From positions 1 to 51,834 of the IMG/VR virus record IMGVR_UViG_3300028581_000002: DNA of 51,834 nucleotides. One strand, given 5' to 3'. Positions 5,075 to 40,851 of this stretch are shown piece after piece (within the stretch, counting starts at the first letter, position 1; the number at the start of each line of letters is the position of its first letter). Below the pieces are notes generated by a model that saw only the letters and a list, made by a program, of their open reading frames with translations, was not told where the DNA came from and did not search any database. Origin of the DNA: a virus (Duplodnaviria > Caudoviricetes). Position numbers and translations under genes: made by a program.

Positions 5075-5458
5075 TTATATATTATTTAGGTTCTTTTTTT
5101 CTATCTTTGGAGTGATACCATTTACAAAAGCTGCAGCAGCCTCTGCGTTTGTAGCCAACTCCATGAATAGTTCACTGTAAGCCTCTGTCTGGGCAAATGA
5201 ATTGCAAATCTCTTTATTCTTAACAAACTCTCTACCATCTGGTGATTTCTCGCCATATGATTTAAGTATTAAGTCTTTAAAGATATCGACAATGCGCTTG
5301 CTATCTTGAGACTCTACAATTTTACCGATCATTTTAACAAGACCGCCATTAACTGATAGTTCCATCTCTGTAATCTCGGCTTTGCTAAGATTGAAATAGA
5401 AATCCTCCGTTCGTGCGTTCCCATCATAGTCGGTATATGTAATCGTCTTTTTTAGCAT
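5075..5458 (-). CDS. Tail assembly chaperone
   Basis: MLKKTITYTDYDG...EDFYFNL; directly after the tail tube gene; RBS TTGAAAGGAG before ATG 5458. Confidence 0.65.
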   Translation of the reverse strand: MLKKTITYTDYDGNARTEDFYFNLSKAEITEMELSVNGGLVKMIGKIVESQDSKRIVDIFKDLILKSYGEKSPDGREFVKNKEICNSFAQTEAYSELFMELATNAEAAAAFVNGITPKIEKKNLNNI

Positions 5459-5487
5459 AGTGTTTTCTCCTTTCAAGAGTATTTTTT

Positions 5488-14855: not shown

Positions 14856-15262
14856 AAATTAGTATCCCCCTTCCGACGTTCTTTTGGTAGTTGTGTTAAT
14901 AACGAAGAATCTCCAAAGTGAATTGCGTTATGTGTGTTATGGGTAGAACATATAAGATTGTCCAGATCAAAAACACAATCTGCTCCATACTCAATATCGT
15001 CAATAGTTATTGGATTTATATGATGTACTATTATTCTATCATAAATTTCTCTATCCTCGATCCCAAGGTCGCATCCCTCATCACGAACTATTACATCACG
15101 ACGAACGAATTTCCATTCCCGTGAATTATATAATACTTGATTGAGATATCTATCGGCGCCAAAAGTTGATCGCCCAATAGTTCCACCTATTTTTAGATAG
15201 TTGAATCGTTCTTCGAATGTGTAAAGACGACGTAGGTCTCTATAAGATTTAATCATCGTCAT
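14837..15262 (-). CDS. HNH endonuclease (terminase-associated)
   Basis: VIVRD..C...VHHINP...NLIC...THNAIH. Confidence 0.85.
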   Translation of the reverse strand: MTMIKSYRDLRRLYTFEERFNYLKIGGTIGRSTFGADRYLNQVLYNSREWKFVRRDVIVRDEGCDLGIEDREIYDRIIVHHINPITIDDIEYGADCVFDLDNLICSTHNTHNAIHFGDSSLLTQLPKERRKGDTNLWNLQY

Positions 15263-15590
15263 CGCCTCTTCTATTTCCAGAATAGGTTTTCATAGCGTTC
15301 AACGCATTAGTGTAGAGTTCTTCGACTCTCTTGCCGGACTGAATTGATTCTGTCTTTGCTTTTATGAGTTCCTTTTGTAGAACAAGAATTTCTTTCTCTT
15401 CTCGTTCTTTAGTGGAACCTAATTTTAAAAAGTGTGATATTACCTGAGAGCTTGCCGTTCCTTCTCGCATCTGCTTCTCTGCAACTTGAATTGCTAGTGA
15501 TATCATCCGATTCTCTATTGCCTCTGGAGTGGTTCCAGGAGGTCTTCTTTTTTGTGTCTTTGGCGTATGGTCATATGTATTTCCCAACAC
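15249..15590 (-). CDS. Probable terminase small subunit
   Basis: Small helical protein upstream of HNH and TerL; GTG start with strong RBS; call is positional. Confidence 0.5.
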   Translation of the reverse strand: MLGNTYDHTPKTQKRRPPGTTPEAIENRMISLAIQVAEKQMREGTASSQVISHFLKLGSTKEREEKEILVLQKELIKAKTESIQSGKRVEELYTNALNAMKTYSGNRRGDDDD

Positions 15591-15621
15591 TAAAGACCTC
15601 CTTTCAAAACTAGTTTATGAT

Positions 15622-15730
15622 ATTTTAGAGAGACTTATGTAAGGATTAAAAGTCCTTGAAAGGAGCCCCGACTCACCACTTCGGAGAAATTAATACTGAC
15701 CTTTAATCCTTATATAAGTCTCTCTAAAAT
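15622..15730 (-). ncRNA. Long intergenic hairpin with anti-RBS loop (candidate regulatory RNA)
   Basis: 33-bp arms at 15622-15654 and 15698-15730 (31/33 complementary); loop contains CUCCUUUCAAG on the minus strand. Confidence 0.55.
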
Positions 15731-15744
15731 TTATGTAAGAATTT

Positions 15745-16257
15745 TTAAACCTCTTCGATGAACTCCATCATGATATATCCAACAATATCCGTTGTGGTAT
15801 AGATTAGGCCCCATTGACCGTCATCGGTTATGGACCTTATCTTTAACTCGAATCCTTTAGAAAGAACATCTAATATAGAGTAATCTTTATTAGGACCTTT
15901 GCGAACATTAACCTTGTTAGATGTAACCACATACACAGTAGTAGGTTCTCCACCAAGCTCGTCATCCGAGTCGTTATCCGTTTTGTCTTCTGTATCCTCT
16001 GGTATTGGTGGATTAGATGCTGATCCCTTTTCGCCATCCTCATTTGTTGGTGTTTCAGGATTTGTTGGTGTTTCAGGATTTGTTGGTGTTTCAGGATTTG
16101 TTGGTGTTTCAGGATTTGTTGGTGTTTCAGGATTCTCTAAACCCTTTTGATCTTCTGCACCCTCTGGGTTAGTTGGCAGTTGAGCGTCATCTAACTTGAT
16201 GTTAGCCTTCTCATCCACTGGATTGTTTGAATTTCTGTGCCCTCTGTTGTTTGACAT
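15745..16257 (-). CDS. Acidic low-complexity protein with C-terminal SH3b domain
   Basis: VNVRKGP...W..I...GYIMMEFI; AAGGAGG RBS before ATG 16257. Confidence 0.75.
   Translation of the reverse strand: MSNNRGHRNSNNPVDEKANIKLDDAQLPTNPEGAEDQKGLENPETPTNPETPTNPETPTNPETPTNPETPTNEDGEKGSASNPPIPEDTEDKTDNDSDDELGGEPTTVYVVTSNKVNVRKGPNKDYSILDVLSKGFELKIRSITDDGQWGLIYTTTDIVGYIMMEFIEEV
16043..16132. repeat. Tandem repeat, 5 x 18 bp, encoding NPETPT
   Basis: tttgttggtgtttcagga repeated five times exactly. Confidence 0.95.
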
Positions 16258-16329: not shown

Positions 16330-16402
16330 TGCTCCCGCGGGGAAAAATAAAAGAGTCAGGCGATATGGGCGGGGGGTATGTGGTGCGAGACCTCCCCCCT
16401 AG
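16330..16402. other. Candidate cos/packaging site
   Basis: GC-rich island with G6 and C6 runs at the early/late boundary, upstream of HNH and terminase; inference. Confidence 0.4.
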
Positions 16403-16685: not shown

Positions 16686-19370
16686 CTAAGTTAATGCTTT
16701 TGATAATCCAGCGGTTGAGATGCCTAAAGCTTCTGCGACTTCTGCTTGTGTGTAGCCTAAGTCAAGCATGGATCGTGCACGAGTGACACGAGCTTTAGCA
16801 ATAGATGTTGTAGTTCTAGGTGTAGCCAACTCTTTAACTCTATCAAGATTAGTGTTCTGTAGAATCTGAGTTAATCTTGATGGACTAACAGCACCTGCTT
16901 GAATAGCGGCCCATTCTTTATCTGAGATCTCAACTTGATTCTTATGCGCTCCTGTGCGTGTTCTTGCTTCTGCTAATGCTTGGTTACGTACCTTCTTAAG
17001 ATCATCGGCATCCATGTTAGGATTGGCTTGAAGCTTCCTATTAACAACAGATGTAGCAAGAATCTGTGCTTGTCTCTCAATTGGTTTGTTCATAAGCGCA
17101 ATGTTTAAGTGAGCTGTTAGAGTGGCAACTTCTGTCTCATAAGCCTTCTTTGCGGATGGGCTATATGGGGTTGGTATTGTGGATAATGCATTAGCTCTTG
17201 ATTTATTACCAAGACCCTTTAAATTATTAGCATAAGCGGCATATACCTCTTCTATGGGGCGGCCTGATGATAGTTCAAAGGCGTCAGATACTTCTGCCAT
17301 CTTTGTAGATTTATTCTTCTTCTCTATCAATGTGCCTTTTTTATTTACATACGACACCCCGGTAGGAGTATAAACTTTCTCACCAGTAATGCGGTCTATT
17401 GGTCCACCATCTTTAGCGCTTCTTGGTTTTCTGTCTAAGACTCTCTTCTCAGAAGATGCTTTAGATACTAGAGTAGATGCGCCACCACGTTTACCATTTT
17501 GATATCTTTCACTTAGAGCAGCTATCCCATGATCAATATATGATCGCCTATAATCAAGGTTATGCTTCTCTGAGTCTATTACAACCATTGAATGCCTAAC
17601 AGCCCTAGCGAGCTCGTCAATAGTGGCACCTTTAATGGTCATATCTGTAATTAGATTAGAGGCTTCTCCCATTTTGGTTTGCTTAGTTTTTGGTTTGATA
17701 GGTGGTATATTGGAACCTTCTGGAATACGGTATAATTCAATAGGATCAAAGTTTTCAAGACCTTTAAGTGATGCAGAAGTCTTTATATATCCTCTATTGT
17801 TTGGTATAACTATGACGGCATCTCCATCGAAGTCTGCTCCAGACATTTTTTGAGCAACCTTTGGATGAATACCAATGGCATCCGGAGCATTACCCATAAC
17901 ATCTTTTGCCGATTTGTTCTTATTGTTTACTATTAATTGGGGTATTTCAAAAGTTCCTCCATGAGGATGACGAATAAGAACTACGGCTTCTCCATCTTTA
18001 TATGTCGGTGCATAAACCTCATTCATTTTAAGCCCTGGAATAGGAAGAAGAACTTTAGATGCTTGTCTCGGTAAGGCTGCGGCTTTAAGATGAACTGCAG
18101 ATGAATCGCAATCATCAGAAAATGCAAGAAGAAGTTGTTTTTTAACAACAGGATTTGTGAGTGCCATGATTTCATCATATTCTTCTTGTTTGTGTTTCAA
18201 AGCCAAATCGAGTTGAGTTTTTGCTAATGGCACTGTTTGTTTTGAAAGTATTTGAGACGAGATCGTTTTAGACCAATGCTCCCAATCACCCTCTTCATTA
18301 ACAATATTAATAGAGCCTCTCTGTCCTCCTGGTTTTATAGTTGCGCCAAAAGGATTATCCGGATCAATTATTTTTTTACCAGTATCATCAGGAACTTCTT
18401 TCATTTTTTTCATAGCATCAAGCTTGTTACCCGTATCCGATTTATTAGTGTTAAATATAACATCAACACCTTTTGGCATGTTATCACTATAAATAGCCAT
18501 TCCTTTTAGGAAATGAGTACCATCAACACCAATACGAACTTGAGCATATTTAGCTCCACCAAGATCTAGATCTTCGACGCCTTTGCGAAGCTCCATAACC
18601 CCATCTTTATCGCTACCACCATCTTTGGCATAGCGAACCATGATTCTTTTTGAATCAACGCTCTGTATTGGTTTTAAACCTAAATCTGAATGATAAGATC
18701 TACCAAAGTCATCAGAAGAAGCAGTAATGCTCTTTATTTTATCAAAATCTCCAGGTTTAACTATATCTTTCCACTCTGTATCTGGTGTACCTAAAACTTT
18801 AACTATCGTAAACTGCCCAGGTATACCTATTTGCGGAACGTTTACCTTATGCACCTTATATCCTTGCTCTTGTAATTCGGCAACAGCAGTGTTTAACTTA
18901 GTAGGACTTACTCCAAGGTGATTGGCAACGCCAGCACCAATATCTATAAATCTTTTTTCATCAACACTTTCTTTCAGCATACTAGCTGTGGCTTTTGTAA
19001 TTGCCGCTCTCTCAGCAAGGATTGGGTCTATGAGACTTCTTACAGAGGATTCATTCCATGTTTTATTTGGAGAGCTCATGCGACGAGCAATTTCCATATT
19101 AGAATATCCCTTATCTTTATATCTCATAGCCACTGTTCTATTTTCTGCTCTACCATCATCTTTAGTTATAGAGTTTCTTGCTCTCAGTTGACTTGTCTTT
19201 ATTCCTTCAAATTTAGCAATTTCTGTAGCGCTTAATCCTTGATCACGGAGTGCTTGAATATGACCACGCCAACCTACAGCTCTTTGATATGGTTCCCCGC
19301 CACTTCCCCAAGGGTAACGCCCAGAACGGCGAGCCATTCCATAATGTTTTAATTCATCGCTCATGAACAT
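16686..19370 (-). CDS. Putative single-chain two-barrel RNA polymerase (YonO/RdRP-like) with HTH domains
   Basis: KDG, YAQVRI...LKG, IRHP, SGADFDGD, MGEASN and HSMVVIDSEKH motifs in the order of the RdRP/YonO family; HTH-like segments at both ends. Confidence 0.75.
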   Translation of the reverse strand: MFMSDELKHYGMARRSGRYPWGSGGEPYQRAVGWRGHIQALRDQGLSATEIAKFEGIKTSQLRARNSITKDDGRAENRTVAMRYKDKGYSNMEIARRMSSPNKTWNESSVRSLIDPILAERAAITKATASMLKESVDEKRFIDIGAGVANHLGVSPTKLNTAVAELQEQGYKVHKVNVPQIGIPGQFTIVKVLGTPDTEWKDIVKPGDFDKIKSITASSDDFGRSYHSDLGLKPIQSVDSKRIMVRYAKDGGSDKDGVMELRKGVEDLDLGGAKYAQVRIGVDGTHFLKGMAIYSDNMPKGVDVIFNTNKSDTGNKLDAMKKMKEVPDDTGKKIIDPDNPFGATIKPGGQRGSINIVNEEGDWEHWSKTISSQILSKQTVPLAKTQLDLALKHKQEEYDEIMALTNPVVKKQLLLAFSDDCDSSAVHLKAAALPRQASKVLLPIPGLKMNEVYAPTYKDGEAVVLIRHPHGGTFEIPQLIVNNKNKSAKDVMGNAPDAIGIHPKVAQKMSGADFDGDAVIVIPNNRGYIKTSASLKGLENFDPIELYRIPEGSNIPPIKPKTKQTKMGEASNLITDMTIKGATIDELARAVRHSMVVIDSEKHNLDYRRSYIDHGIAALSERYQNGKRGGASTLVSKASSEKRVLDRKPRSAKDGGPIDRITGEKVYTPTGVSYVNKKGTLIEKKNKSTKMAEVSDAFELSSGRPIEEVYAAYANNLKGLGNKSRANALSTIPTPYSPSAKKAYETEVATLTAHLNIALMNKPIERQAQILATSVVNRKLQANPNMDADDLKKVRNQALAEARTRTGAHKNQVEISDKEWAAIQAGAVSPSRLTQILQNTNLDRVKELATPRTTTSIAKARVTRARSMLDLGYTQAEVAEALGISTAGLSKALT

Positions 19371-22103: not shown

Positions 22104-25100
22104 TTAAAATGGTAGTGCATCATATCCAGCTTTACATTCCATTCCAGTCTCTGCGCTAATACTCCAATCGGGACACCCAAGACAATCGTTTCTTCCACAA
22201 GCCATCACCCATGGGGGAGTGTCATTAAATCCAATTGGTTCATCTTTTGAGTCATTCTTTATAGTATCCGATATAAACCACTCGAAGTCTCCATATTTAG
22301 AAATGTCTTCAACCGCGGCATCAACCATGTTATTATAATAGTCTAAATCTAATTCCTCTTTTTTCTCAAGTTCAATTATCATCTCTGCTTCCAACCATCT
22401 ATATCCTTTGCTACCCGTTGCTGCGTAGTACTTACCCTCTTTTTCTCTCATAAGAAGTCCGCCACCACAACCAGGTCTAACTGGACAGAATGCTCCAACC
22501 CTACCAATGAAATGATAGTCATGATTTTCCGAGGTTTCATTCATGTCAAGATATAAAGCTGAAGTTACCGATTTTACTTCTAACATATCCTCAAATTCAA
22601 TTGGTTCATGAGAGAATAGTGTTTTGAATACGTATGGTTGCGCGAACTGCGCCCCTGTAGCTGTCCATTCTCCAATATGTTTTCCATCTGGGGTCCATCC
22701 AACTTTTGCAATGTATACCGCATCGTTAACTAGACAGAATCGGCTATATGTCTCTTCATGTTCGAAATCATAACCATATTCCTTTCCAAAGTTCATGACA
22801 AATTGTATTATTTCAGGGGTTGCATCTGGAATTTTGATAGAGTCGGTCTTAATGTGAACAACATCAAACCCTTGGTTATTTACCGCCTCTTTCAAGTCGA
22901 CCATAAACAAAGCACCACGTTTAGCAACAACATTGTCTATATTTCTAGGATCCTTAAACGGATTTTCGAAACTAGCCGATGTTAATCCATATGCAGAGTT
23001 AAGCGCAGTCTTCAATCCATTAGATACATCTTTCAATGTAAATCTCGGATTATCACTAAGAGCATTTTCTATAAAAGGTATTAGACGTCCATTTAATAAA
23101 GTTTTCAATGTATCAAAGTCTTTACGTTTGATCGCTAGGCGACCAGCCTTTAGATCGCTGTAGTTCTTAGTATAGCGGCCAAACATTTGTTCTGCTTCAA
23201 TGGTTGTTGGATGCATAGACGCGACGTCAAGCACGGCAACATTAGAATACATACCGGGTTTGGCAAATACATATCCACCCTCGCCAGTCTTTACTCCACG
23301 ATATGTACTAACCCCATTTTCAAATTTATAACCAATAAATCGTTTACTTAAGTCTGGATAATTGAAACTAGATTGGGGCTTCTTATCATTACCAAACACT
23401 ATCTTGATAGAATGTTGATTGGTTGTATCATTTACGGATAGTCCACTCAACTCTGCTAAGATTTGTCTTGCGGCCCAGTCGCCTGCTAAATGATCAAATG
23501 TGGCTTCTGTCGCGTCAACATCGTTTCCGCAATAATCTGCAACTGTACCCCATAACGCTTCGGGTACATCTTCGTCCCATGGAAGACCTAATTCTTGATG
23601 ATGAATTCCAAGTTTTATCTCCCATTTTTTTAGGCCCATTTTATTTTGCACACAAGCAAAGTCGTATACGTCGGTGTAAGAAATATTGTATGCTTCACCA
23701 AACATACAGTTACGACTTCCTTTTATTATCTTTTGACTAAGCTCATATAACTGTTTGTTATCGTACCCTATATATCGGGCATACAGTATATGATTATCAT
23801 ACCTACGACAATTGAAACCTATTAACTTTAATTTAAAAAGCTCCTCAATCTCACTTGCCGATGGATTAATCATCTTAACTTTATTACCGCCTTTTTTTTT
23901 CCATACAACAACAAACAAATTTGGGAAAACCTCAACATCATAGAATATAAGGTCTTCATTTTTAACATCATCAACAGATGCACTGCTCTCGTCAGATGTA
24001 AATTGCATTTTACTTACCAACTTAATACAGTAATCTGCTTGATGAGAGGAATTGTTTGCGAATGCTAATACTCTAGGACGCATATCTTTAACATCATATG
24101 GCATCCCTGATATATAAGCTTCATCTAGTATTTTATAAATGAAGTCTATACTTGGTTTGGTGCCTGGGTGAATTTCTTTTCTAAGATTTCGAGAAATAAT
24201 ATCTCTTAATCCCTTCTCACTTTTAACAGCTTCGAAGTTGATCACGCTCTTATCTCCTTTCAAAGGCAAGCCACTACTTATTGTGGCTATTGGTGAATTG
24301 TTGCATTTGGATAGTCTCCTCCTCAAAGATGCTTGCCCAACAAATACTTTAATTTCAATACCTTCTGAATATACTCTACTAAGTTTGCGAGCATCGCCGT
24401 CATAATTATAATGAAGATGAATCCCCGCTCCACTTTTACTAAACTCGGCATATGTAGTTGGCCATTTACTTGCGGCTTCAAGATTTAACTGCATGGACTT
24501 TTCACCACTAATATCTTTTAAATCAAAATCAATGACTATATGATTTAATGGCGGTTTAACATAATGAGTTTCCCTAGTGTTGATATCGGACAGAGTTGTA
24601 GTAGTCTCATCCCATTTACCCTTAGGCGTTTCTTTTGCCGTAGCATACTGCGCAGGGCAATCGGTTAACTCCTCGTCAAGTATCGAATTTGGATCGTCAA
24701 GCACTAGTGAATATGGCGTTTCCTCTTTTGGTGTTTCTGATATAGCAAACTTCTCAGAAAGGAAACCCATATAATAACTACGGATCTGCTTACCATCGAC
24801 TCTTGTCATGTCAAGAAACTTCTCAAAATATGACTTAAGTTCTTCCCTAAATTTATGGCGAGGCATTTTAAACTCAATAAGAGCTTCGTCGCAATAAGCT
24901 TTATATATTTCATATGCTTGGGCTAGACTTACTCCATCTTGTTCTTTGAATATATGATAGTTTGCCTCAACAAAGTTAAAGAATACATCTGTTTGAAATA
25001 TCATCTCTAATGGGCGATAACCGGCATAATAATTTTTACCTTTTTCTTGATATACTTGAAGACAGTGCCAAGCAATAGAGCCCAATTCAAAATCTATCTG

Positions 25101-26036
25101 ACTAATTAAAGTGTGATATCTCTTTGTTGGTATCTTATTATTGCTTGGTCTGACATCTATAAGTCTTCTTATAATTCCGGATTTAGCATCAGTTATCTTA
25201 ACTGGTTTGTTTGTACCCATAAATAGAAACGCATTTGATCGTGCCATATATGCTGGTTTAAATTTTTCATGCATTGTCATTTCTTCATGAGATATTATTG
25301 AGTTTAGTTTTGTATTATCCTCTATTCTTGAAAGGTCTCCATCATGTTGAATTGCAACTAATGGGTTGCCTCTAAAAACTTCTGTGGAAAATACATTACT
25401 GGCGCTTGTTAAAGCCTTTGCCTCGAACGTTGTATAGTATCCTTGAAAGAGACTTTGGATAATGTTAAGAATGGTAGATTTGCCTGTACCAGCTTCTCCG
25501 TACAAGACAATAAATTTTTGAATGTTCTTTGCGTCTCCTGAGATGATAGCTCCGATAGCCCATTCGAGTTTTGTCCTTTCTTCTGGTTCATACAAGGTTC
25601 CGATGAGTTCGTCATACGCATCTATTTTTCCTTCCTTCAAAGAATATGGTAATCTGTGACTAACATAATCGCTTTTTTTTACTTCAGTATTTGCAAATGC
25701 AATATGATCGTCCAATTGATGTGAATTATCAGACATCTCTCTAATAAAAGCTCTATAGTTCTTCCACATATTTGAAGACATACTTATCATTCGTTTTATT
25801 TCTATAGGGCCTGAGAAAGCTTTCTGCCTTTCACTTTTGTATTCATTTAGTTCTTCATCAACTAATCGCTGAACATCATACTCGTCGGTTGACCACATTT
25901 GTTTGTTGTTATCCCATATCGCATAAAATGATCTCCCGCGAATCATCAAATCTTTAGATCGACAAGCTTTGAAGTCGGGATATATTTGAAGAGTTCCTTT
26001 TTTGCTCGTTTCTTCTGTGATGTGATAGAAATCCAC
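22104..26036 (-). CDS. Fused D5-like helicase, prim-pol and family B DNA polymerase
   Basis: GEAGTGKS; IDFD...SKSGAGIHLHY; exonuclease YDVE, GFN...YD, YCGND; polymerase DVASMHP, KTALNSAYG, KTDS. Confidence 0.9.
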   Translation of the reverse strand: MDFYHITEETSKKGTLQIYPDFKACRSKDLMIRGRSFYAIWDNNKQMWSTDEYDVQRLVDEELNEYKSERQKAFSGPIEIKRMISMSSNMWKNYRAFIREMSDNSHQLDDHIAFANTEVKKSDYVSHRLPYSLKEGKIDAYDELIGTLYEPEERTKLEWAIGAIISGDAKNIQKFIVLYGEAGTGKSTILNIIQSLFQGYYTTFEAKALTSASNVFSTEVFRGNPLVAIQHDGDLSRIEDNTKLNSIISHEEMTMHEKFKPAYMARSNAFLFMGTNKPVKITDAKSGIIRRLIDVRPSNNKIPTKRYHTLISQIDFELGSIAWHCLQVYQEKGKNYYAGYRPLEMIFQTDVFFNFVEANYHIFKEQDGVSLAQAYEIYKAYCDEALIEFKMPRHKFREELKSYFEKFLDMTRVDGKQIRSYYMGFLSEKFAISETPKEETPYSLVLDDPNSILDEELTDCPAQYATAKETPKGKWDETTTTLSDINTRETHYVKPPLNHIVIDFDLKDISGEKSMQLNLEAASKWPTTYAEFSKSGAGIHLHYNYDGDARKLSRVYSEGIEIKVFVGQASLRRRLSKCNNSPIATISSGLPLKGDKSVINFEAVKSEKGLRDIISRNLRKEIHPGTKPSIDFIYKILDEAYISGMPYDVKDMRPRVLAFANNSSHQADYCIKLVSKMQFTSDESSASVDDVKNEDLIFYDVEVFPNLFVVVWKKKGGNKVKMINPSASEIEELFKLKLIGFNCRRYDNHILYARYIGYDNKQLYELSQKIIKGSRNCMFGEAYNISYTDVYDFACVQNKMGLKKWEIKLGIHHQELGLPWDEDVPEALWGTVADYCGNDVDATEATFDHLAGDWAARQILAELSGLSVNDTTNQHSIKIVFGNDKKPQSSFNYPDLSKRFIGYKFENGVSTYRGVKTGEGGYVFAKPGMYSNVAVLDVASMHPTTIEAEQMFGRYTKNYSDLKAGRLAIKRKDFDTLKTLLNGRLIPFIENALSDNPRFTLKDVSNGLKTALNSAYGLTSASFENPFKDPRNIDNVVAKRGALFMVDLKEAVNNQGFDVVHIKTDSIKIPDATPEIIQFVMNFGKEYGYDFEHEETYSRFCLVNDAVYIAKVGWTPDGKHIGEWTATGAQFAQPYVFKTLFSHEPIEFEDMLEVKSVTSALYLDMNETSENHDYHFIGRVGAFCPVRPGCGGGLLMREKEGKYYAATGSKGYRWLEAEMIIELEKKEELDLDYYNNMVDAAVEDISKYGDFEWFISDTIKNDSKDEPIGFNDTPPWVMACGRNDCLGCPDWSISAETGMECKAGYDALPF

Positions 26037-26293: not shown

Positions 26294-26815
26294 CTAAATT
26301 GGGTAGTTTTCGAGCATATATTCACTCATTTGATACCACACTTCAACGCGTCTTTGGTCTTTTTTTGTTTTTTTTAGGGGAAATAATCCACCATTTCCGT
26401 CACTTTCGTACGTCCTTTCGAGCATTTGTGACACTTTTTCATCGATTTGTGACACTTCTGTCATATCTAGAAACTCATTATTGTCACACCAAGTGAGTTC
26501 CAAATTATCAATTAATATCCAAAACCACTCGCTAGGAGTCTTTTCCCAACGACTTTGTGCGGTCTCGAACTCGAGCCTAAACGATAAACCAATAAGCATT
26601 TCGAGAACAGTGCAGGGTCCATCTTCGCATGGAGAAAGGGCTTGTGGCCCCATCTCAGAAATGAAAGTTTCACGTAATTGCTGTCCATCAGCACCTCTAT
26701 TATCATCATTGGGTATTAGAGAATAAAACTCTATCCGATGTAATTTACCAAGCAACATATCGTACTTGTTTGTCTTCCCCGTAATATCACATAAGAAATC
26801 AAAATATTTACTCAT
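26294..26815 (-). CDS. Hypothetical phage protein
   Basis: DDNRGADG, VLEMLI and GGLFPL motifs; overlaps the upstream stop. Confidence 0.75.
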   Translation of the reverse strand: MSKYFDFLCDITGKTNKYDMLLGKLHRIEFYSLIPNDDNRGADGQQLRETFISEMGPQALSPCEDGPCTVLEMLIGLSFRLEFETAQSRWEKTPSEWFWILIDNLELTWCDNNEFLDMTEVSQIDEKVSQMLERTYESDGNGGLFPLKKTKKDQRRVEVWYQMSEYMLENYPI

Positions 26816-27497
26816 CTAAATTTTCCTTCCCTTTACCCTTTTTCATATATCTTTCACGTGGACTTAGATTGTCTTCCATATCTATTCCATGCACAGTTTC
26901 TTGATATGATTTGTTTAAGGCCATAATCTCATAATCAATATCTAACCTTTCATTACGTACCCATACGGTCGGCTCAATATCAAGTTCTTTGATAGCCTCG
27001 AAACCAACGACGTTCTCACGGTCCATTAAGACCTCTTCATTTTCTTCTGTTAGAACATCGTCTATCCTGTAATAATACAAGCAGACTTTCTCGTGGTTGT
27101 CAAAAGTATCAGCAAATTCCTCGCTATCAATCAAATATGGTTGTGTTTTATCCGTGTTAGGTGGGTTCATTTCTTCCTCATCTACAGGATGCAAGCTCAT
27201 TGAATTATAGTTTTTTTTTGCTTTTTTATAATCGTTTTCATCTGCAGAAGACCTAGTAAGAGGATTTGTTACGTTCCTCTTCTTTTTTCTATCTATTGTA
27301 TCTGGATCTTCTTTCATCTTTTTGGATTCAGCGCAAGCAGTAGAGTCTTTAGGTTCAAACCTTTTATTCTTACCATAGTGCTCTTTAACACTCTCAATTT
27401 CGTCCTCGGCAAGATCTTTGTAATATTTCTTAACTGCTAATACACCAACTCCAACTCCAATGGCAAATATAGCAATTTTGGTGATTACTGATTTCAT
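26808..27497 (-). CDS. Hypothetical protein with N-terminal membrane anchor
   Basis: IAIFAIGVGVGVLAV; VWVRNERLDIDYEI. Confidence 0.75.
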   Translation of the reverse strand: MKSVITKIAIFAIGVGVGVLAVKKYYKDLAEDEIESVKEHYGKNKRFEPKDSTACAESKKMKEDPDTIDRKKKRNVTNPLTRSSADENDYKKAKKNYNSMSLHPVDEEEMNPPNTDKTQPYLIDSEEFADTFDNHEKVCLYYYRIDDVLTEENEEVLMDRENVVGFEAIKELDIEPTVWVRNERLDIDYEIMALNKSYQETVHGIDMEDNLSPRERYMKKGKGKENLDE

Positions 27498-27522
27498 ATT
27501 CATTCTCCTTTCAAGAGATTAT

Positions 27523-27763
27523 TTATTTTTCATCGCCTATATCATTCATGAATACATGAATTTTCTTTATACTATAATCTTCAGGAAAACTACAAAACGA
27601 AAATTGATTTGGGTCCATATCAGATATAAGTTTCTTCTCTTCGGAATCAAAAATTATTCTGATCGCCCATGTTAGTAATAAATCCTCTTTCTTTTTCATC
27701 AAGAATTAGCATAATAGGCTGATCTTCACTATTAAATATAACATCTCCAATTTTTACTTTCAT
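27523..27763 (-). pseudogene. Small gene split by a frameshift at an internal duplication
   Basis: MKVKIGD... stops at 27647; the +1 frame continues IFDSEEKKLISDMD...GDEK to the stop at 27523. Confidence 0.5.
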
Positions 27764-27776
27764 ATACATTCTCCTT

Positions 27777-28028
27777 TCAAGAGAGTTTTTTACTTTCATA
27801 ATAATACAAAATATCTTTCATGTCATCATCAGTGACGAACTCACATAATATGCCCTTAGTCTCCCGGTGTGGAAACAAGCAATACCCATGATCCTTTTTA
27901 AATAACAAAAGATCATTAGGAGTTACCATTTCAAAAATATTAATAACAAGTTGACCACATTCGTCATAAAACATGTTATTTTCTTCGTCCCACCAGAAGT
28001 ATAAAATCATTTGATTCTTCTGTAGCAT
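27777..28028 (-). CDS. Hypothetical protein, paralog of 32021..32272
   Basis: Shared N.F..E.G..V.NI...VTP....LFK. Confidence 0.7.
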   Translation of the reverse strand: MLQKNQMILYFWWDEENNMFYDECGQLVINIFEMVTPNDLLLFKKDHGYCLFPHRETKGILCEFVTDDDMKDILYYYESKKLS

Positions 28029-29019: not shown

Positions 29020-29169
29020 TTATTTTTCGAAACGTGTTTTCAATACTACAAATGTTGCCTTATTACAAATTTTTATAAGCTCATCATTACGACCTTTATT
29101 GTAAAACCAGATTATTACAAGTAGTGCTCCTCCGACGTACAATAACTTCTTCTTTTGGTTTTCATCCAT
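29020..29169 (-). CDS. Small membrane protein, 49 aa (not in ORF track)
   Basis: RBS CTTGAAAGGAG; MDENQKKKLLYVGGALLVIIWFY... Confidence 0.6.
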   Translation of the reverse strand: MDENQKKKLLYVGGALLVIIWFYNKGRNDELIKICNKATFVVLKTRFEK

Positions 29170-29199
29170 TAGTTTATCTCCTTTCAAGAAATAAAAAAT

Positions 29200-32526: not shown

Positions 32527-32961
32527 TTAATAAATGCCTTGCAATATTAAGCCACTAGACCAGGTGCTACCATTGCTAGTGTCGACTTTAATCACTGAAT
32601 TTACATCATTATATTTAACAGTTCCATCTGGATAAACATCCTTGAATAGGGAACTCATTCGCTTACACTGATAATTTGTAACTCCGTTTTTATCGCATGA
32701 TACATCATTCCAAATATCATCAGTATCCTCGATTGGTGTTAAAGGCTTACCGTCAATCAAAGCCATAAGGATATTCTTTGTAAACCCAATACTATAGCCA
32801 CTATGACCGTCTTTCATAAGGGAATTGAATGCTTTCATTGCACTCCTATAACAAGCAACCCCATATCCAGCGTCCTCTGGATGACCATCAACCTTAGCTG
32901 CTTTTACCTCTCTTGCACATGCTATTTTTACTTCACTCTTTGCCCATTCTTTCATACTCAT
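32527..32961 (-). CDS. Hypothetical phage protein
   Basis: DGHSGYS, KPLTPI and YQCKRMSSLFK motifs; RBS. Confidence 0.7.
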   Translation of the reverse strand: MSMKEWAKSEVKIACAREVKAAKVDGHPEDAGYGVACYRSAMKAFNSLMKDGHSGYSIGFTKNILMALIDGKPLTPIEDTDDIWNDVSCDKNGVTNYQCKRMSSLFKDVYPDGTVKYNDVNSVIKVDTSNGSTWSSGLILQGIY

Positions 32962-32994
32962 TAGTATATTCTCCTTTCAAGAGATTAATATTTT

Positions 32995-37859: not shown

Positions 37860-38663
37860 CTATTTCATAAATTTTGGCACGACCTCATAATTCAGAACTA
37901 TGCAAGGTTCGCCCTCTTCTGTAAGTTGAGTGCTAAAAGATATTTCAACTAATCCTTTGTCAAGATCCCAGCCCATTTGATCACCAAGTTTATTTCCTGC
38001 CAATCCAAGCCCATAATATAACTCATTCACAGTCATGAATCCGTCTGTCATTAATGAATGATTAAGATCATTTACAACACGTCTTATTTGCTCAATATCA
38101 TTCTTGAAATATCGTCCGGATAAGCTATCATAACATGTCACACTGCCCTTGCCTGTGAATATAATCTCGTTCTTACTAGCTGGATCCCTTTTTACACGAT
38201 CAGCAGAAATATCATCCCTGACCTTTAATTCTTTATTCTTACCAATAGTCTCGACTACCTTATGCTTGTATTCTTTGAATGCCGCTTCTGTTATACCATA
38301 TAAGCTAGCTAAGGCAGCGTTACGTCGTAATGATATTTGATTAGCACTAATGATACATGCTATGGTTACTGCTCCCATCGTCACTGTAGGAATATAACAC
38401 TTCCAGGTCAACTTCACAATTTCCATCTTCGTCAAATCAGGCAATATCATATCTGGTAGACTATCGTTGTAATATCCTCGATCATCTAACTCCTGGTCCA
38501 TAATTGATAAAGCCCTCGGCGTTGCCTTAACTGCAAATATAACCGTCCCTAAAAGTCCAGCAACAGCAATCCCGGTGAGAATTGTCGGACTATTTTGGGA
38601 AATTACACCCCCGAGGTTTTTTGCCGCTTGAGTTAATCCATTTCCTTCACTAAAACTCTTCAT
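37860..38663 (-). CDS. Phage protein (DUF6353-like), paralog of 28053..28994
   Basis: NSPTIL, RNAALASLY and SGRYF motifs. Confidence 0.7.
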   Translation of the reverse strand: MKSFSEGNGLTQAAKNLGGVISQNSPTILTGIAVAGLLGTVIFAVKATPRALSIMDQELDDRGYYNDSLPDMILPDLTKMEIVKLTWKCYIPTVTMGAVTIACIISANQISLRRNAALASLYGITEAAFKEYKHKVVETIGKNKELKVRDDISADRVKRDPASKNEIIFTGKGSVTCYDSLSGRYFKNDIEQIRRVVNDLNHSLMTDGFMTVNELYYGLGLAGNKLGDQMGWDLDKGLVEISFSTQLTEEGEPCIVLNYEVVPKFMK

Positions 38664-38758
38664 TTGTGACTCCCTTCAAGATTTAATCTTCTGTGGTTTG
38701 CATGTCATACTAGCACATTATAAACATGATATTTCTCCTTTCAAGAAAAATATAAAAA

Positions 38759-38843
38759 GAAATGTACAGGATTCGAACCTGCGACATCTAGTGCTTCCAT
38801 ATAATTTCCGCATCTATCGCTCTACCAACTGAGCTAACATCTC
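38759..38843 (-). tRNA. tRNA-like RNA with aberrant, enlarged anticodon arm
   Basis: 7-bp acceptor stem, D arm TAGCTCAGTTGGTAGAGC, T arm GCAGG-TTCGAAT-CCTGT; about 30-nt anticodon region; no CCA. Confidence 0.75.
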
Positions 38844-38847
38844 TTTC

Positions 38848-38872
38848 ATTATAACCTGTGTAATTTTCGCGA
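38848..38872 (-). promoter_or_regulatory. Phage promoter motif copy
   Basis: TCGC GAAAATT ACA CAGGT TATAAT. Confidence 0.8.
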
Positions 38873-39141: not shown

Positions 39142-40389
39142 CTATCTGCCAGCACAATTGTAGCAATACAACTTCCTTGTTTTCTCGTTTTCCACGACTG
39201 TGGTTTCTTCACCACAAAATGGACATTTACGTGGATACTGTTCTGTGTTAGATCTTGTTAGATTCTCTTTAACTTCTGGAACTATTTTGTTCGCTTTGAA
39301 TACATCTAACTTATCACCAACTCCAACCATCAGGTCCTCAAATATCTTTAATGAGTGTAAATTTGCTTGTTTGACAATAGTTCCCTCAAGTGCTAACGGT
39401 TCAAACAATACTACAGGTGTAATCAATCCTGTTGCGCTTACACTCCATTTCATGCCGGTTACAGTGGTTAATGCTGATATATCCGGCCATTTAAACGCCA
39501 TACTATGCTTGGGGAACTTAGCCGTAGTACCTAATGAGTTGCCATATTCTATATCATTAAGAGATAACACAAGACCATCCACAGGGAACTCGAAATTCTC
39601 AACCCCGTCCGTATAATGCTGTATTTGGTGTTTTAATTCAAAATTCAACACTTTAGAATATGGTACAACATTGAATCCAAAATCCCTTAAATGCTCTAGT
39701 TCTTCACTTCTCTGTGTAGTATGCCAAGGTAATCCTTGGAGTAATACAACAGAATGAGCAACAAAAGATATATGTCTTAATAAGATAGACGTCGTTTTAC
39801 TAGCGTTTATAAGTCCTGCTACCATGTTACGAGGATTACTGAATCTTTCACCTTCTTGAGTCTTCTTAATTTGAGCAAACTCACTGATCGATAGACAACC
39901 TTCCCCACGGACAATTACTTCGCCCTTCATAGACTTCATATTTATGGTTTTTGGTACATTACGCATGAGTATAACATTCTTAGTAATGTCCTTACCATAA
40001 TGACCATCTCCGCGACTTACAGCTCTTTGTAATATACCGTCTAAGTAATATAATACAATGGACATACCATCGAGCTTCCATGATAATATACCTTCTCGTT
40101 CGCCTAGGAAATATAGCAAATCATCTATATTTTTGGTATCCTTTAGCGAAAGAATAGACATATAATGCCTTATCTTACCATCTTGAAGCTCTTCAAATCC
40201 AACTTTTGTTGTCGGCGACTCATATAGGGTTACGCCCGTATCTTCTTCCAGGCTTGATAGTTCAGATAAGAACCTATCGTATTGTCTATCAGTAATAGGC
40301 GATTCGTCTTCACCGGAATAATACTTACTCCTAGCATCGTATAGAATATCAATTAAATCCGCCATACGCGCTTCCTTATTAAGATCCAT
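39142..40389 (-). CDS. ligA: NAD-dependent DNA ligase, minimal form lacking HhH and BRCT
   Basis: YY...D..YD, KLDG, SRGDG..G, VRGE, NPRN, DGLV and AFK motifs, OB fold, terminal CPFC...CYNC. Confidence 0.9.
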   Translation of the reverse strand: MDLNKEARMADLIDILYDARSKYYSGEDESPITDRQYDRFLSELSSLEEDTGVTLYESPTTKVGFEELQDGKIRHYMSILSLKDTKNIDDLLYFLGEREGILSWKLDGMSIVLYYLDGILQRAVSRGDGHYGKDITKNVILMRNVPKTINMKSMKGEVIVRGEGCLSISEFAQIKKTQEGERFSNPRNMVAGLINASKTTSILLRHISFVAHSVVLLQGLPWHTTQRSEELEHLRDFGFNVVPYSKVLNFELKHQIQHYTDGVENFEFPVDGLVLSLNDIEYGNSLGTTAKFPKHSMAFKWPDISALTTVTGMKWSVSATGLITPVVLFEPLALEGTIVKQANLHSLKIFEDLMVGVGDKLDVFKANKIVPEVKENLTRSNTEQYPRKCPFCGEETTVVENEKTRKLYCYNCAGR

Positions 40390-40431
40390 GATAATTTCTC
40401 CTTTCAAGAAAAATATAAAACTGCTTTGTAA

Positions 40432-40837: not shown

Positions 40838-40851
40838 AAAGCCTAAGCTTC
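40838..40851 (-). terminator. Repeated hairpin, copy 3 (GAAGC-TTAG-GCTTT)
   Basis: Just after the stop of 40857..41057. Confidence 0.65.

Follow-up and report, generated by a model that had tools for sequence, protein, structure and literature searches.

Introduction

Gram-positive small RNAs such as RNAIII and RsaE/RoxS carry C-rich loops that cover Shine-Dalgarno (SD) sequences, and the leaders of phages T7 and lambda contain hairpins that are processed by RNase III. In phage T4 the RegB endoribonuclease inactivates many early mRNAs through a Shine-Dalgarno signal, GGAG followed by an A-rich flank (passages of PMC3014915). Non-coding RNAs have also been placed at the head of late operons. 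StxS derives from the late promoter leader of Shiga-toxin phages (abstract of PMC7547250), and the late operon that YonO transcribes in SPbeta has an unannotated non-coding RNA at its start (passages of PMC5467207).

Cluster K mycobacteriophages carry SAS, asymmetric motifs of ~13 nt with an SD core that are found a few nucleotides before the starts of mostly non-structural genes (Pope et al. 2011, passages of PMC3203893). These motifs occur in one orientation with a single reverse copy, and their role was left open as 'either RNA or protein' (passages of PMC3203893). In phage Adephagia the region between genes 92 and 93 is one of apparent late transcription initiation (passages of PMC11373665).

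Here, we describe a long RNA hairpin in a phage genome, the complete 51,834-bp virus record that we refer to as the window, in which every gene is on the minus strand. We present evidence that the hairpin is conserved among relatives of this phage and that its loop is complementary to an extended ribosome-binding site (RBS) shared by a subset of mostly non-structural genes. We propose that the loop may act on these genes in trans.

Results

A stable hairpin lies upstream of gp1

The hairpin occupies positions 15622..15730 of the minus strand and, as gene-strand RNA, consists of a 33-position stem and a 43-nt loop. Its 5' arm (15698..15730, minus strand) and 3' arm (15622..15654, minus strand) were assigned from the fold and from arm complementarity; the arms are 33 nt each and 94% complementary, and the minus-strand RNA forms 31 Watson-Crick pairs, one G-U pair and one 1x1 mismatch. 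A 156-nt minus-strand segment containing the hairpin folds stably, with an MFE of -50.5 kcal/mol (z = -6.07; 0 of 200 shuffles as stable), in agreement with the 33-bp stem proposed in a preceding sequence-only reading of this DNA. The plus strand folds similarly well (z = -6.9). Within the loop, an apical mini-hairpin (15666..15686, minus strand) has a CUCCGA / UCGGGG stem, which covaries in relatives, and the loop AGUGGUGAG. The final 11 loop bases before the 3' arm on the gene strand, CUCCUUUCAAG (15655..15665, minus strand), adjoin that arm and are predicted to be unpaired with a probability of 0.99. We refer to this sequence as the anti-tag.

A scan beside the hairpin revealed no sigma-70-like promoter and no terminator. 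We rejected the hairpin itself as an intrinsic terminator, since the scan reported none and the 3' arm is followed by AUAUCAUAAAC, not by a U run. The RBS-like sequence that the loop presents on the plus strand has no start codon downstream, and so does not belong to a plus-strand ORF. In an Rfam 15 covariance-model search the window yielded only a tRNA and 19 related loci yielded 0 matches at the gathering threshold; at E up to 10 there were only chance matches to plant or animal miRNA or snoRNA precursors, far under threshold.

The order of features leading into the hairpin on the gene strand begins with the last large gene of the right end, which encodes an 894-aa protein (16686-19370, minus strand). 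It is followed by an 80-aa gene, by a G6...C6 hairpin together with a cos-like sequence (~16330-16400), and by a 170-aa ORF (15745..16257, minus strand), with PETPTN repeats and a C-terminal SH3-like domain, that lies between cos and the hairpin. The hairpin then precedes gp1 (15249..15590, minus strand; 113 aa, phrog_4259, GTG start), and downstream of gp1 are genes for an HNH endonuclease, a connector protein, a DUF7211 protein and the large terminase. The phage also encodes a YonO-like polymerase. We do not retain the earlier 'terminase-small-like' label for gp1, a two-helix protein without a Pfam, PDB sequence or fold match.

Many metagenomic relatives have contigs that begin at a single conserved sequence, C(C)TYAAAAA..CCGGGGG.., and the homologue of this sequence in the window runs from 16353 downward, after CGCCTGACT. 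From this homology to the contig starts of relatives, we predict a 9-nt 3' cos overhang, CGCCTGACT on the gene strand, at 16354..16362 (minus strand), and a left genome end that starts at 16353 and runs toward lower coordinates. Overhangs of 9 bases at the 3' end are documented in related Arthrobacter phages of Cluster AU (passages of PMC5513430 and 10.1101/2020.01.10.891226). Two short contigs (runs X2 and X4) end at 16353 and one (X2) starts at 16363, so that the 9 bases of the predicted overhang are not covered by them; a longer X1 contig spans the site, and we treat these ends as a weak hint that carries no evidential weight. The sequencing runs listed for the phage were of DNA from lakes and freshwater, with no RNA run among them. 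The hairpin was considered and rejected as a cos or cosB site: the conserved left-end sequence of relatives lies upstream of it, and the cos homologue (16330-16400) is ~620 nt upstream with an ORF between, a distance of ~2 kb in Yotsuba and Camille.

The arrangement cos, hairpin, gp1 is found in the majority of relatives. In the window, L004, Yotsuba and Camille, cos is followed by one or more lysis-type genes before the hairpin is reached. Phage 1706, L034 and L015 have further genes downstream of the hairpin, ahead of gp1, and a small ORF occupies this place in L009, L011 and L033. In most of the cultured relatives listed gp1 is gene 1 or 2, ~1 kb or less from the left end, and in several Streptomyces phages this distance is <200 nt; phages of Gordonia, Rhodococcus, Curtobacterium and Microbacterium have other genes ahead of it. 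The stem of several relatives begins ~22 nt from the physical DNA end, which leaves no space for a promoter of its own, so that it can be transcribed only across the joined cos.

The hairpin is conserved and structured as gene-strand RNA

The sequence CTCCTTT was found within a long hairpin upstream of gp1 in 38 of 57 loci from IMG/VR relatives; many of these 38 are near-identical, and they represent ~27 distinct hairpins with the motif. The remaining 19 loci comprise 8 with <200 nt upstream, 3 that have a hairpin without the motif, and others that have no hairpin. In L008 and L012 the hairpin is kept and the motif is missing. Three of the 8 loci with short upstream sequence, L039, L041 and L042, begin at a cos-like left end, indicating that their leaders are complete and do not contain the hairpin. 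Among cultured phages, the hairpin and motif are present in Arthrobacter phage Shepard, Curtobacterium phage Yotsuba and Microbacterium phage Camille, and a degraded motif is present in Lactococcus phage 1706 and Faecalibacterium phage FP_oengus. The hairpin was not found in the parts examined of Streptomyces phage Popy, Gordonia phage Kerry and Rhodococcus phage ReqiPoco6.

Stem length is maintained at 23-43 pairs across relatives although the stem sequence varies freely, and stems of this size are long enough for RNase III, whose substrates are duplexes of at least about two helical turns. Summed over 31 distinct hairpins, the sense fold has 120 G-U pairs and 15 A-C mismatches, as compared with 35 and 51 for the antisense fold. 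Double changes that preserve pairing affect 22 of the 35 stem pairs in one subgroup and 19 of 28 in a second. In the apical mini-hairpin all six pairs are doubly changed (6/6) and 96.3% of cells are paired, with 0 of 500 shuffles as good. Thus, by G-U asymmetry and covariation, the hairpin is a structured RNA on the sense (gene) strand. Regardless of its function, it constitutes a well-supported new structured-RNA motif and a landmark for the left end of these genomes.

The motif is always on the 3' side of the loop, with the copy nearest the 3' arm 0-25 nt from that arm, and some relatives have two or three copies within the loop. In the subgroup that includes the window, it comes after a mini-hairpin with the loop GUGGUGAG. 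The predicted unpaired probability of the anti-tag ranges from 0.35 to 0.99 across relatives, consistent with an accessible motif on a stable hairpin. One 14-nt stretch of the loop is shared without change by low-GC and GC-rich phages. A covariance model of the apical part gave one strong match per genome, its weak matches being the reverse strands of tagged RBSs.

The loop is complementary to ribosome-binding sites in the window

The 11-nt sequence CTTGAAAGGAG occurs eight times in the window, once on the plus strand within the loop (15655-15665) and seven times on the minus strand; none is expected by chance (0 in 100 shuffles). The seven minus-strand copies are those that had been listed as RBSs exactly complementary to the loop, and the 11-nt match falls at called starts six times. 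Four of the copies have the form CTCTTGAAAGGAG(A) and three the form TTCTTGAAAGGAG.

The tag at 40398..40408 (minus strand, as are all tags below) reads CTTGAAAGGAG and precedes an NAD-dependent DNA ligase-like gene (39142-40389), and that at 29178..29188 precedes a 49-codon ORF (29020-29169). Copies of CTCTTGAAAGGAG are found at 32971..32981 before gene 32527-32961 (phrog_24386), at 27771..27781 before a 38-codon ORF starting at 27763, at 27505..27515 before gene 26808-27497 (phrog_4695), and at 5467..5477 before gene 5075-5458 (phrog_4282), which is in the structural block. The remaining copy, at 38735..38745, had been counted as an RBS; it lies directly after a tRNA gene and precedes only a 5-codon ORF, and the next gene (37860-38663, phrog_2152) carries the one-mismatch form CTTGAAGGGAG. 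All four of the 10-nt matches claimed previously were also present. One is the RBS of gp1, TTGAAAGGAG(G) (15598..15607, minus strand), 20 nt past the stem, and the others are at 24254, 35490 and 40851; the match at 24254 is within the polymerase gene, ahead of an in-frame GTG, and the match at 40851 is not followed by a start codon, so that these two do not fit the original description as well.

The tagged genes of the window, small ORFs among them, lie in the non-structural region apart from phrog_4282. Orthologues of phrog_4282 are tagged in G001, G003 and G005, making it the sole conserved exception to the non-structural location, and orthologues of three window tagged genes are also tagged in distant genomes. 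Duplexes between the loop and the tags are predicted at -18 to -19 kcal/mol, versus -12.7 kcal/mol for a textbook 16S tail. The earlier claim that the CTT extension exceeds what 16S pairing needs rests likewise on the textbook 16S 3' tail. In Camille, Yotsuba and the window, -10-like hexamers, judged by eye, lie closely upstream of several tags, suggesting that the tag may be nearly the entire 5' leader.

The tag recurs in genomes that carry the hairpin

The tag CTCTTGAAAGGAG(A) is located 5-9 nt ahead of ATG or GTG starts in the window, G006, Shepard, Yotsuba and Camille; beyond the window there are 3 copies in G006, 2 in Shepard, 3 in Yotsuba (plus 1 variant) and 4 in Camille (plus 4 variants). 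The loop of GC-rich relatives (CUCCUUUCAAGAGG) is a perfect 12-15-nt complement of CTCTTGAAAGGAG, which in these genomes precedes the starts of non-structural genes by 5-8 nt. In G006, Yotsuba, Camille and the L009 group the loop sequence is (U)CUCCUUUCAAGAG(G), exactly complementary to the tag. When the loop of each genome is compared with the RBSs of that genome, the longest perfect matches measure 15, 15 and 14 nt in G006; 15 nt, 13 nt (four times), 12 nt (twice) and 10 nt in Camille; 13, 13, 13 and 12 nt in Yotsuba; 12 and 12 nt in Shepard; and up to 14 nt in G003 to G005. The tags cluster in the right-hand, non-structural half of the genome in G001, G004, G010, G011, Shepard, Yotsuba and Camille.

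In hairpin-bearing genomes, exact CTTGAAAGGAG occurs in the forward orientation 3 times in G006, 2 in Shepard, 3 in Yotsuba and 4 in Camille. The exact reverse sequence occurs once each in Yotsuba and Camille, in the loop, and the 10-nt TTGAAAGGAG has a single reverse copy in each of Shepard and G006, in both cases in the loop. The exact tag count is 0 in the four hairpin-less genomes tested (Popy, Kerry, ReqiPoco6 and G008); a partial exception is G007, which is without the hairpin yet has a CTTGAAAGGAGG RBS at gp1. This co-occurrence of tag and hairpin is confounded by GC content and shared ancestry, as is the finding that CTTG tags are present only where the loop has CAAG (13 of 30 TGAAAGGAG RBSs, versus 0 of 23 where the loop has CAAA).

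As a control for the anti-SD content of the loop, its 8-nt anti-SD core was kept, the flanks were shuffled 500 times, and the summed match to the genome's own RBSs was compared. Shuffled loops reached the observed sum in 0 of 500 cases in G006 and in 38 of 500 in the window, so that the match beyond the anti-SD core is only marginally significant in the window alone. In the low-GC genomes the match beyond the core is likewise marginal to weak, the corresponding numbers (of 500) being 31 for G001, 97 for G003, 218 for G002, 114 for FP_oengus, 33 for G004 and 16 for G005.

The sequence-only reading had looked to covariation of loop and tag among relatives. Both elements are conserved, and one position (C/G versus T/A) tracks between them; strict genome-by-genome covariation of the loop 3' extension with the RBSs was not found. 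The RBSs of one genome match foreign loops about as well as their own loop. A T before GAAAGGAG is the commonest RBS form in 5 of the 6 genomes first compared, G003 included. The G003 loop reads CUCCUUUCGG, but T precedes GAAAGGAG in 14 TGAAAGGAG starts of that genome; 0 of its genes match at least 6 nt of its own loop 3' extension, and it matches only via the A-rich 3' flank. In G002 the hairpin is present and no RBS match exceeds 10 nt. The core of the loop is a plain anti-SD sequence, and the RNA would therefore also suit any strong SD, including those of late genes and host genes.

A comparable arrangement in Cluster K1 mycobacteriophages

In all four Cluster K1 mycobacteriophages checked, the gene-strand sequence of the single reverse-oriented SAS is GGCCUCCUAUCCC. 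RNAfold predicts a ~19-bp hairpin whose 10-nt apical loop contains CCUCCUAUCC, with compensatory differences between phages. The K1 hairpin lies upstream of the last genes before cos, an HNH gene among them, and in Adephagia the site falls between genes 92 and 93, the region of apparent late transcription initiation. No such anti-SAS turned up when 3-4 kb at the right ends of ZoeJ, TM4 and Pixie (Clusters K2 and K3) were examined. A link between the reverse SAS and a hairpin loop was not found stated in the passages seen of PMC3203893, PMC12699233 and PMC11373665; the SAS tables of PMC3203893 and PMC12699233 may list reverse sites. A literature search found no paper linking SAS with a small RNA.

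The tag described here and SAS are alike in being start-proximal, asymmetric sequences of ~13 nt with an SD core, in preceding mostly non-structural genes, and in having a single reverse copy. They differ in sequence (the SAS consensus is GGGATAGGAGCCC, versus CTCTTGAAAGGAG here) and in phage family and hosts. Since the tag sequence is unlike GGGATAGGAGCCC, we regard it as an analogue of the Cluster K SAS and not as a member.

Discussion

We interpret the hairpin as a putative trans-acting RNA, encoded at the head of the packaging operon, that would repress the tagged, mostly early genes; we hold this to be the likeliest reading, with a probability of roughly one half. Transcribed from the gene strand, the RNA would belong to the leader of the packaging and structural genes, which are presumably late, a short way inside the left cos end. 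Its ~32-bp stem would hold out the loop, on whose 3' side the unpaired anti-tag (CUCCUUUCAAG here, CUCCUUUCAAGAGG in many relatives) would be presented to the complementary extended RBS tag, (CTC)TTGAAAGGAG(A), 5-9 nt before the starts of a mostly non-structural gene subset. As the RNA accumulated, it would pair in trans with the tags, either while still part of the long transcript or once released from it, perhaps by RNase III, whose processing of the hairpin is plausible. Pairing would mask the Shine-Dalgarno sequence, stop initiation and perhaps trigger cleavage, and the tagged genes would be shut off as the packaging genes come on.

The trans-acting reading had been offered from the window alone as one of two alternatives. 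It gains from the conserved complementarity of loop and tag (12-15 nt in GC-rich genomes), from the co-occurrence of tag and hairpin, from the mostly non-structural location of the tags, and from the K1 parallel; the strict covariation that it might have brought with it was not found. The hairpin would represent a widely distributed element of the class of anti-SD base-pairing RNAs. It resembles RNAIII and RsaE/RoxS in having an unpaired, pyrimidine-rich anti-SD sequence on a stable hairpin and predicted pairing with the RBSs of several mRNAs. Unlike these RNAs, the phage hairpin is in an operon leader beside which no promoter or terminator was found, has a much longer stem, and is complementary to a dedicated tag beyond the SD itself. 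The proposed mechanism shares with T4 RegB the logic of shutting off early mRNAs at the SD; RegB is an S1-aided protein nuclease, whereas the agent proposed here is an antisense RNA. StxS and the SPbeta RNA are likewise non-coding RNAs at the start of a late operon, and the window phage has a YonO-like polymerase, but the likeness drawn here is one of position, their targets and mechanisms being different or undescribed. If correct, the proposal would describe a widespread, previously undescribed RNA-based switch from early to late expression in phages of Actinobacteria and in low-GC, Firmicutes-type phages, with an antisense RNA doing what the RegB nuclease does in T4.

The long stem could itself be the functional element. 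As a processing or stability element, the duplex would serve as an RNase III site or as a barrier to 5' or 3' exonucleases, which would part the packaging genes from RNA polymerase and the other right-end genes in a cos-crossing transcript, and the pyrimidine-rich loop would be secondary. The constancy of stem length while the sequence drifts, the position of the hairpin ~22 nt from the DNA end in several relatives, where it is reached only across the joined cos, and the lack of a sigma-70-like promoter or terminator beside it are all consistent with such a role, and the RNase III hairpins of T7 and lambda are similarly long intercistronic duplexes in polycistronic phage transcripts. Those hairpins are not known to carry a conserved anti-SD loop matching a gene tag, and processing leaves unexplained both the 14-nt loop identity between low-GC and GC-rich phages and the exact complementarity of the loop to a conserved RBS tag. 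We therefore consider processing an unlikely account in its own right, and note that it and an anti-tag role are not mutually exclusive.

Oriented sequence tags can also be protein-binding sites, as are the stoperators of Cluster A mycobacteriophages. By analogy, the tag could be the oriented binding site of a phage protein and its reverse copy a regulatory or packaging site, or the hairpin could form in single-stranded DNA as a priming or packaging signal. The proximity of the hairpin to cos in most relatives, the large conserved HTH-bearing protein encoded beside cos, and the similar folding of both strands in the window taken alone would fit a DNA-level element. The G-U asymmetry, however, favours one strand, and 0.6-2 kb separate the hairpin from the genome end in the window, Yotsuba and Camille; in addition, the tags retain an SD core 5-9 nt from start codons, and relatives that have no tag still encode the large protein. 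Taken together, we judge both forms of this explanation to be quite improbable.

The other alternative put forward at the outset was a cis regulator, in which a pseudoknot between the anti-SD loop and the RBS that follows, that of gp1 in the window, throttles translation of the gene concerned. The gp1 RBS of the window (UUGAAAGGAGG) does match the loop over 10 nt, and its position 20 nt past the stem is sufficient to reach back. This geometry is not general: in L016, L059, L049, L054, L009 and L014 the SD is 3-12 nt from the base of a stem of at least 31 pairs. The downstream gene varies, other genes intervening between the hairpin and gp1 in 1706, L034 and L015, and the gp1 RBS is not a tag in Shepard, G003-G006, Yotsuba and Camille and is an ordinary GGAGG in most relatives. 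An SD too close to the stem base, a variable downstream gene and an untagged gp1 RBS thus argue against a cis pseudoknot as the conserved mechanism, and we give it little credence. Sequestration of the SD by sequence flanking the stem was rejected as inconsistent among relatives. Finally, we think it very unlikely that the hairpin imitates the 3' end of 16S rRNA, with its long stem in the place of a processing stem and an anti-SD tail beside the 3' arm, and so acts as decoy for a 16S-tail factor or nuclease: the motif is indeed always on the loop 3' side, 0-25 nt from the 3' arm for the copy nearest to it, and is repeated in sponge-like fashion in some loops, but the likeness to rRNA is a putative one and the conserved AAGAGG extension matches the phage tag.

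Returning to repression in trans by the anti-tag, the K1 arrangement raises the tentative possibility that SAS are address labels for an RNA timer. Unrelated siphophages would tag their early genes, with CTCTTGAAAGGAG here and GGGATAGGAGCCC in K1, and carry one antisense copy in a hairpin loop where the late packaging operon begins, so that late transcription might switch the tagged genes off by RNA-RNA pairing. Such a timer, if it exists, would account for the SAS motifs and so answer a question that dates from 2011. Pairing of an anti-tag RNA with SAS offers a testable answer to their function in Cluster K mycobacteriophages, some of which have been engineered for therapy, and harmless, culturable test systems exist in Arthrobacter, Microbacterium, Lactococcus and M. 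smegmatis phages.

Two further features concern the apical part of the hairpin. A 3-bp helix closing the CUUUCAA loop is compatible with the alignment (92.6% of cells paired), but double changes are absent. The GUGGUGAG mini-loop finds a 6-mer complement within 80 nt at 4 of the 11 window tags, as compared with ~0.8 expected; one of these four sites is the site internal to the polymerase gene, and the same -33 offset is seen in G001 and G002.

Tag-like sites in the polymerase and tRNA regions

The tag, an extended ribosome-binding sequence before start codons that is complementary to the hairpin loop, occurs in exact or similar form in two settings. Inside the gene for a 1310-aa primase-polymerase (22104-26036), a tag-like ribosome-binding sequence, TTTGAAAGGAG, is followed by an in-frame GTG (24245-24263, minus strand). 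This site may serve as an internal start of the gene, and initiation at the GTG would yield a 713-aa C-terminal product. Two related phage genomes, G001 and G002, contain TTGAAAGGAG sites in which the 6-mer at -33 is identical to that of the site in the window's polymerase gene, and these may be its counterpart. Within the stretch 38640-38860, a tRNA gene (38758-38843, minus strand) is directly followed by a perfect tag, a 5-codon ORF and then the phrog_2152 gene, which carries a one-mismatch tag, CTTGAAGGGAG. A promoter-like sequence, TATAATGAAAG, is repeated on the minus strand at about 42560, 40800 and 38850; the copies precede early-region genes and the tRNA gene.

Reverse SAS hairpins and conservation of gp1

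In the Cluster K1 mycobacteriophages Anaya (L099) and Adephagia (L100) and the loci L119 and L120, a conserved hairpin carries the single reverse-oriented start-associated sequence (SAS) in its apical loop; it is located at 39830-39920 of L099 (Anaya 59.83-59.92 kb) and at 58.64-58.73 kb of Adephagia. According to the published account of Adephagia (PMC11373665), late transcription appears to begin in the interval holding this hairpin.

The product of gp1, the gene downstream of the window's hairpin (15249-15590, minus strand), shares 49-89% identity with the window protein in 23 of 24 relatives, a set that takes in both low-GC and GC-rich phages; in the most distant relative (L059) the figure is 40%. 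Such conservation of gp1 is unusually high. Its predicted structure consists of two long helices and an acidic tail, and comparison with known folds and families produced no match. In Yotsuba (L105, about 2010-2090), a sequence that includes a tRNA-like T-arm, GGTTCGAATC, is situated after the hairpin and before the gp1 homologue.

The cos region and its flanking genes

The cos region (16330-16400, minus strand) comprises, in this order, a G6...C6 hairpin, a predicted 9-nt overhang, CGCCTGACT (16362-16354), and the left end, CTTTTATTTTTCCCCGCGGG. Conservation of this region extends across phyla; the left-end pattern also begins the contigs of many relatives, as well as the records for Shepard, Popy, 1706, Yotsuba, Camille and ReqiPoco6. 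In two other runs, short contigs stop at 16353 or begin at 16363, which gives no more than a weak hint.

At the right end, a gene on the minus strand (16686-19370) encodes an 894-aa protein with 52-54% identity to proteins from Streptomyces, Arthrobacter and Curtobacterium phages. Sequence searches returned no matches in PDB and, in Pfam, weak HTH matches alone. Residues 508-515, SGADFDGD, are invariant in all six orthologues. Because two-barrel RNA polymerases bind metal through this motif, the 894-aa protein is probably a phage RNA polymerase of the YonO type. Between cos and the hairpin lies a 170-aa SH3-like ORF containing a tandem 18-nt repeat (16040-16160, minus strand), each unit of which encodes PETPTN; the repeat disturbed contig assembly at that place.
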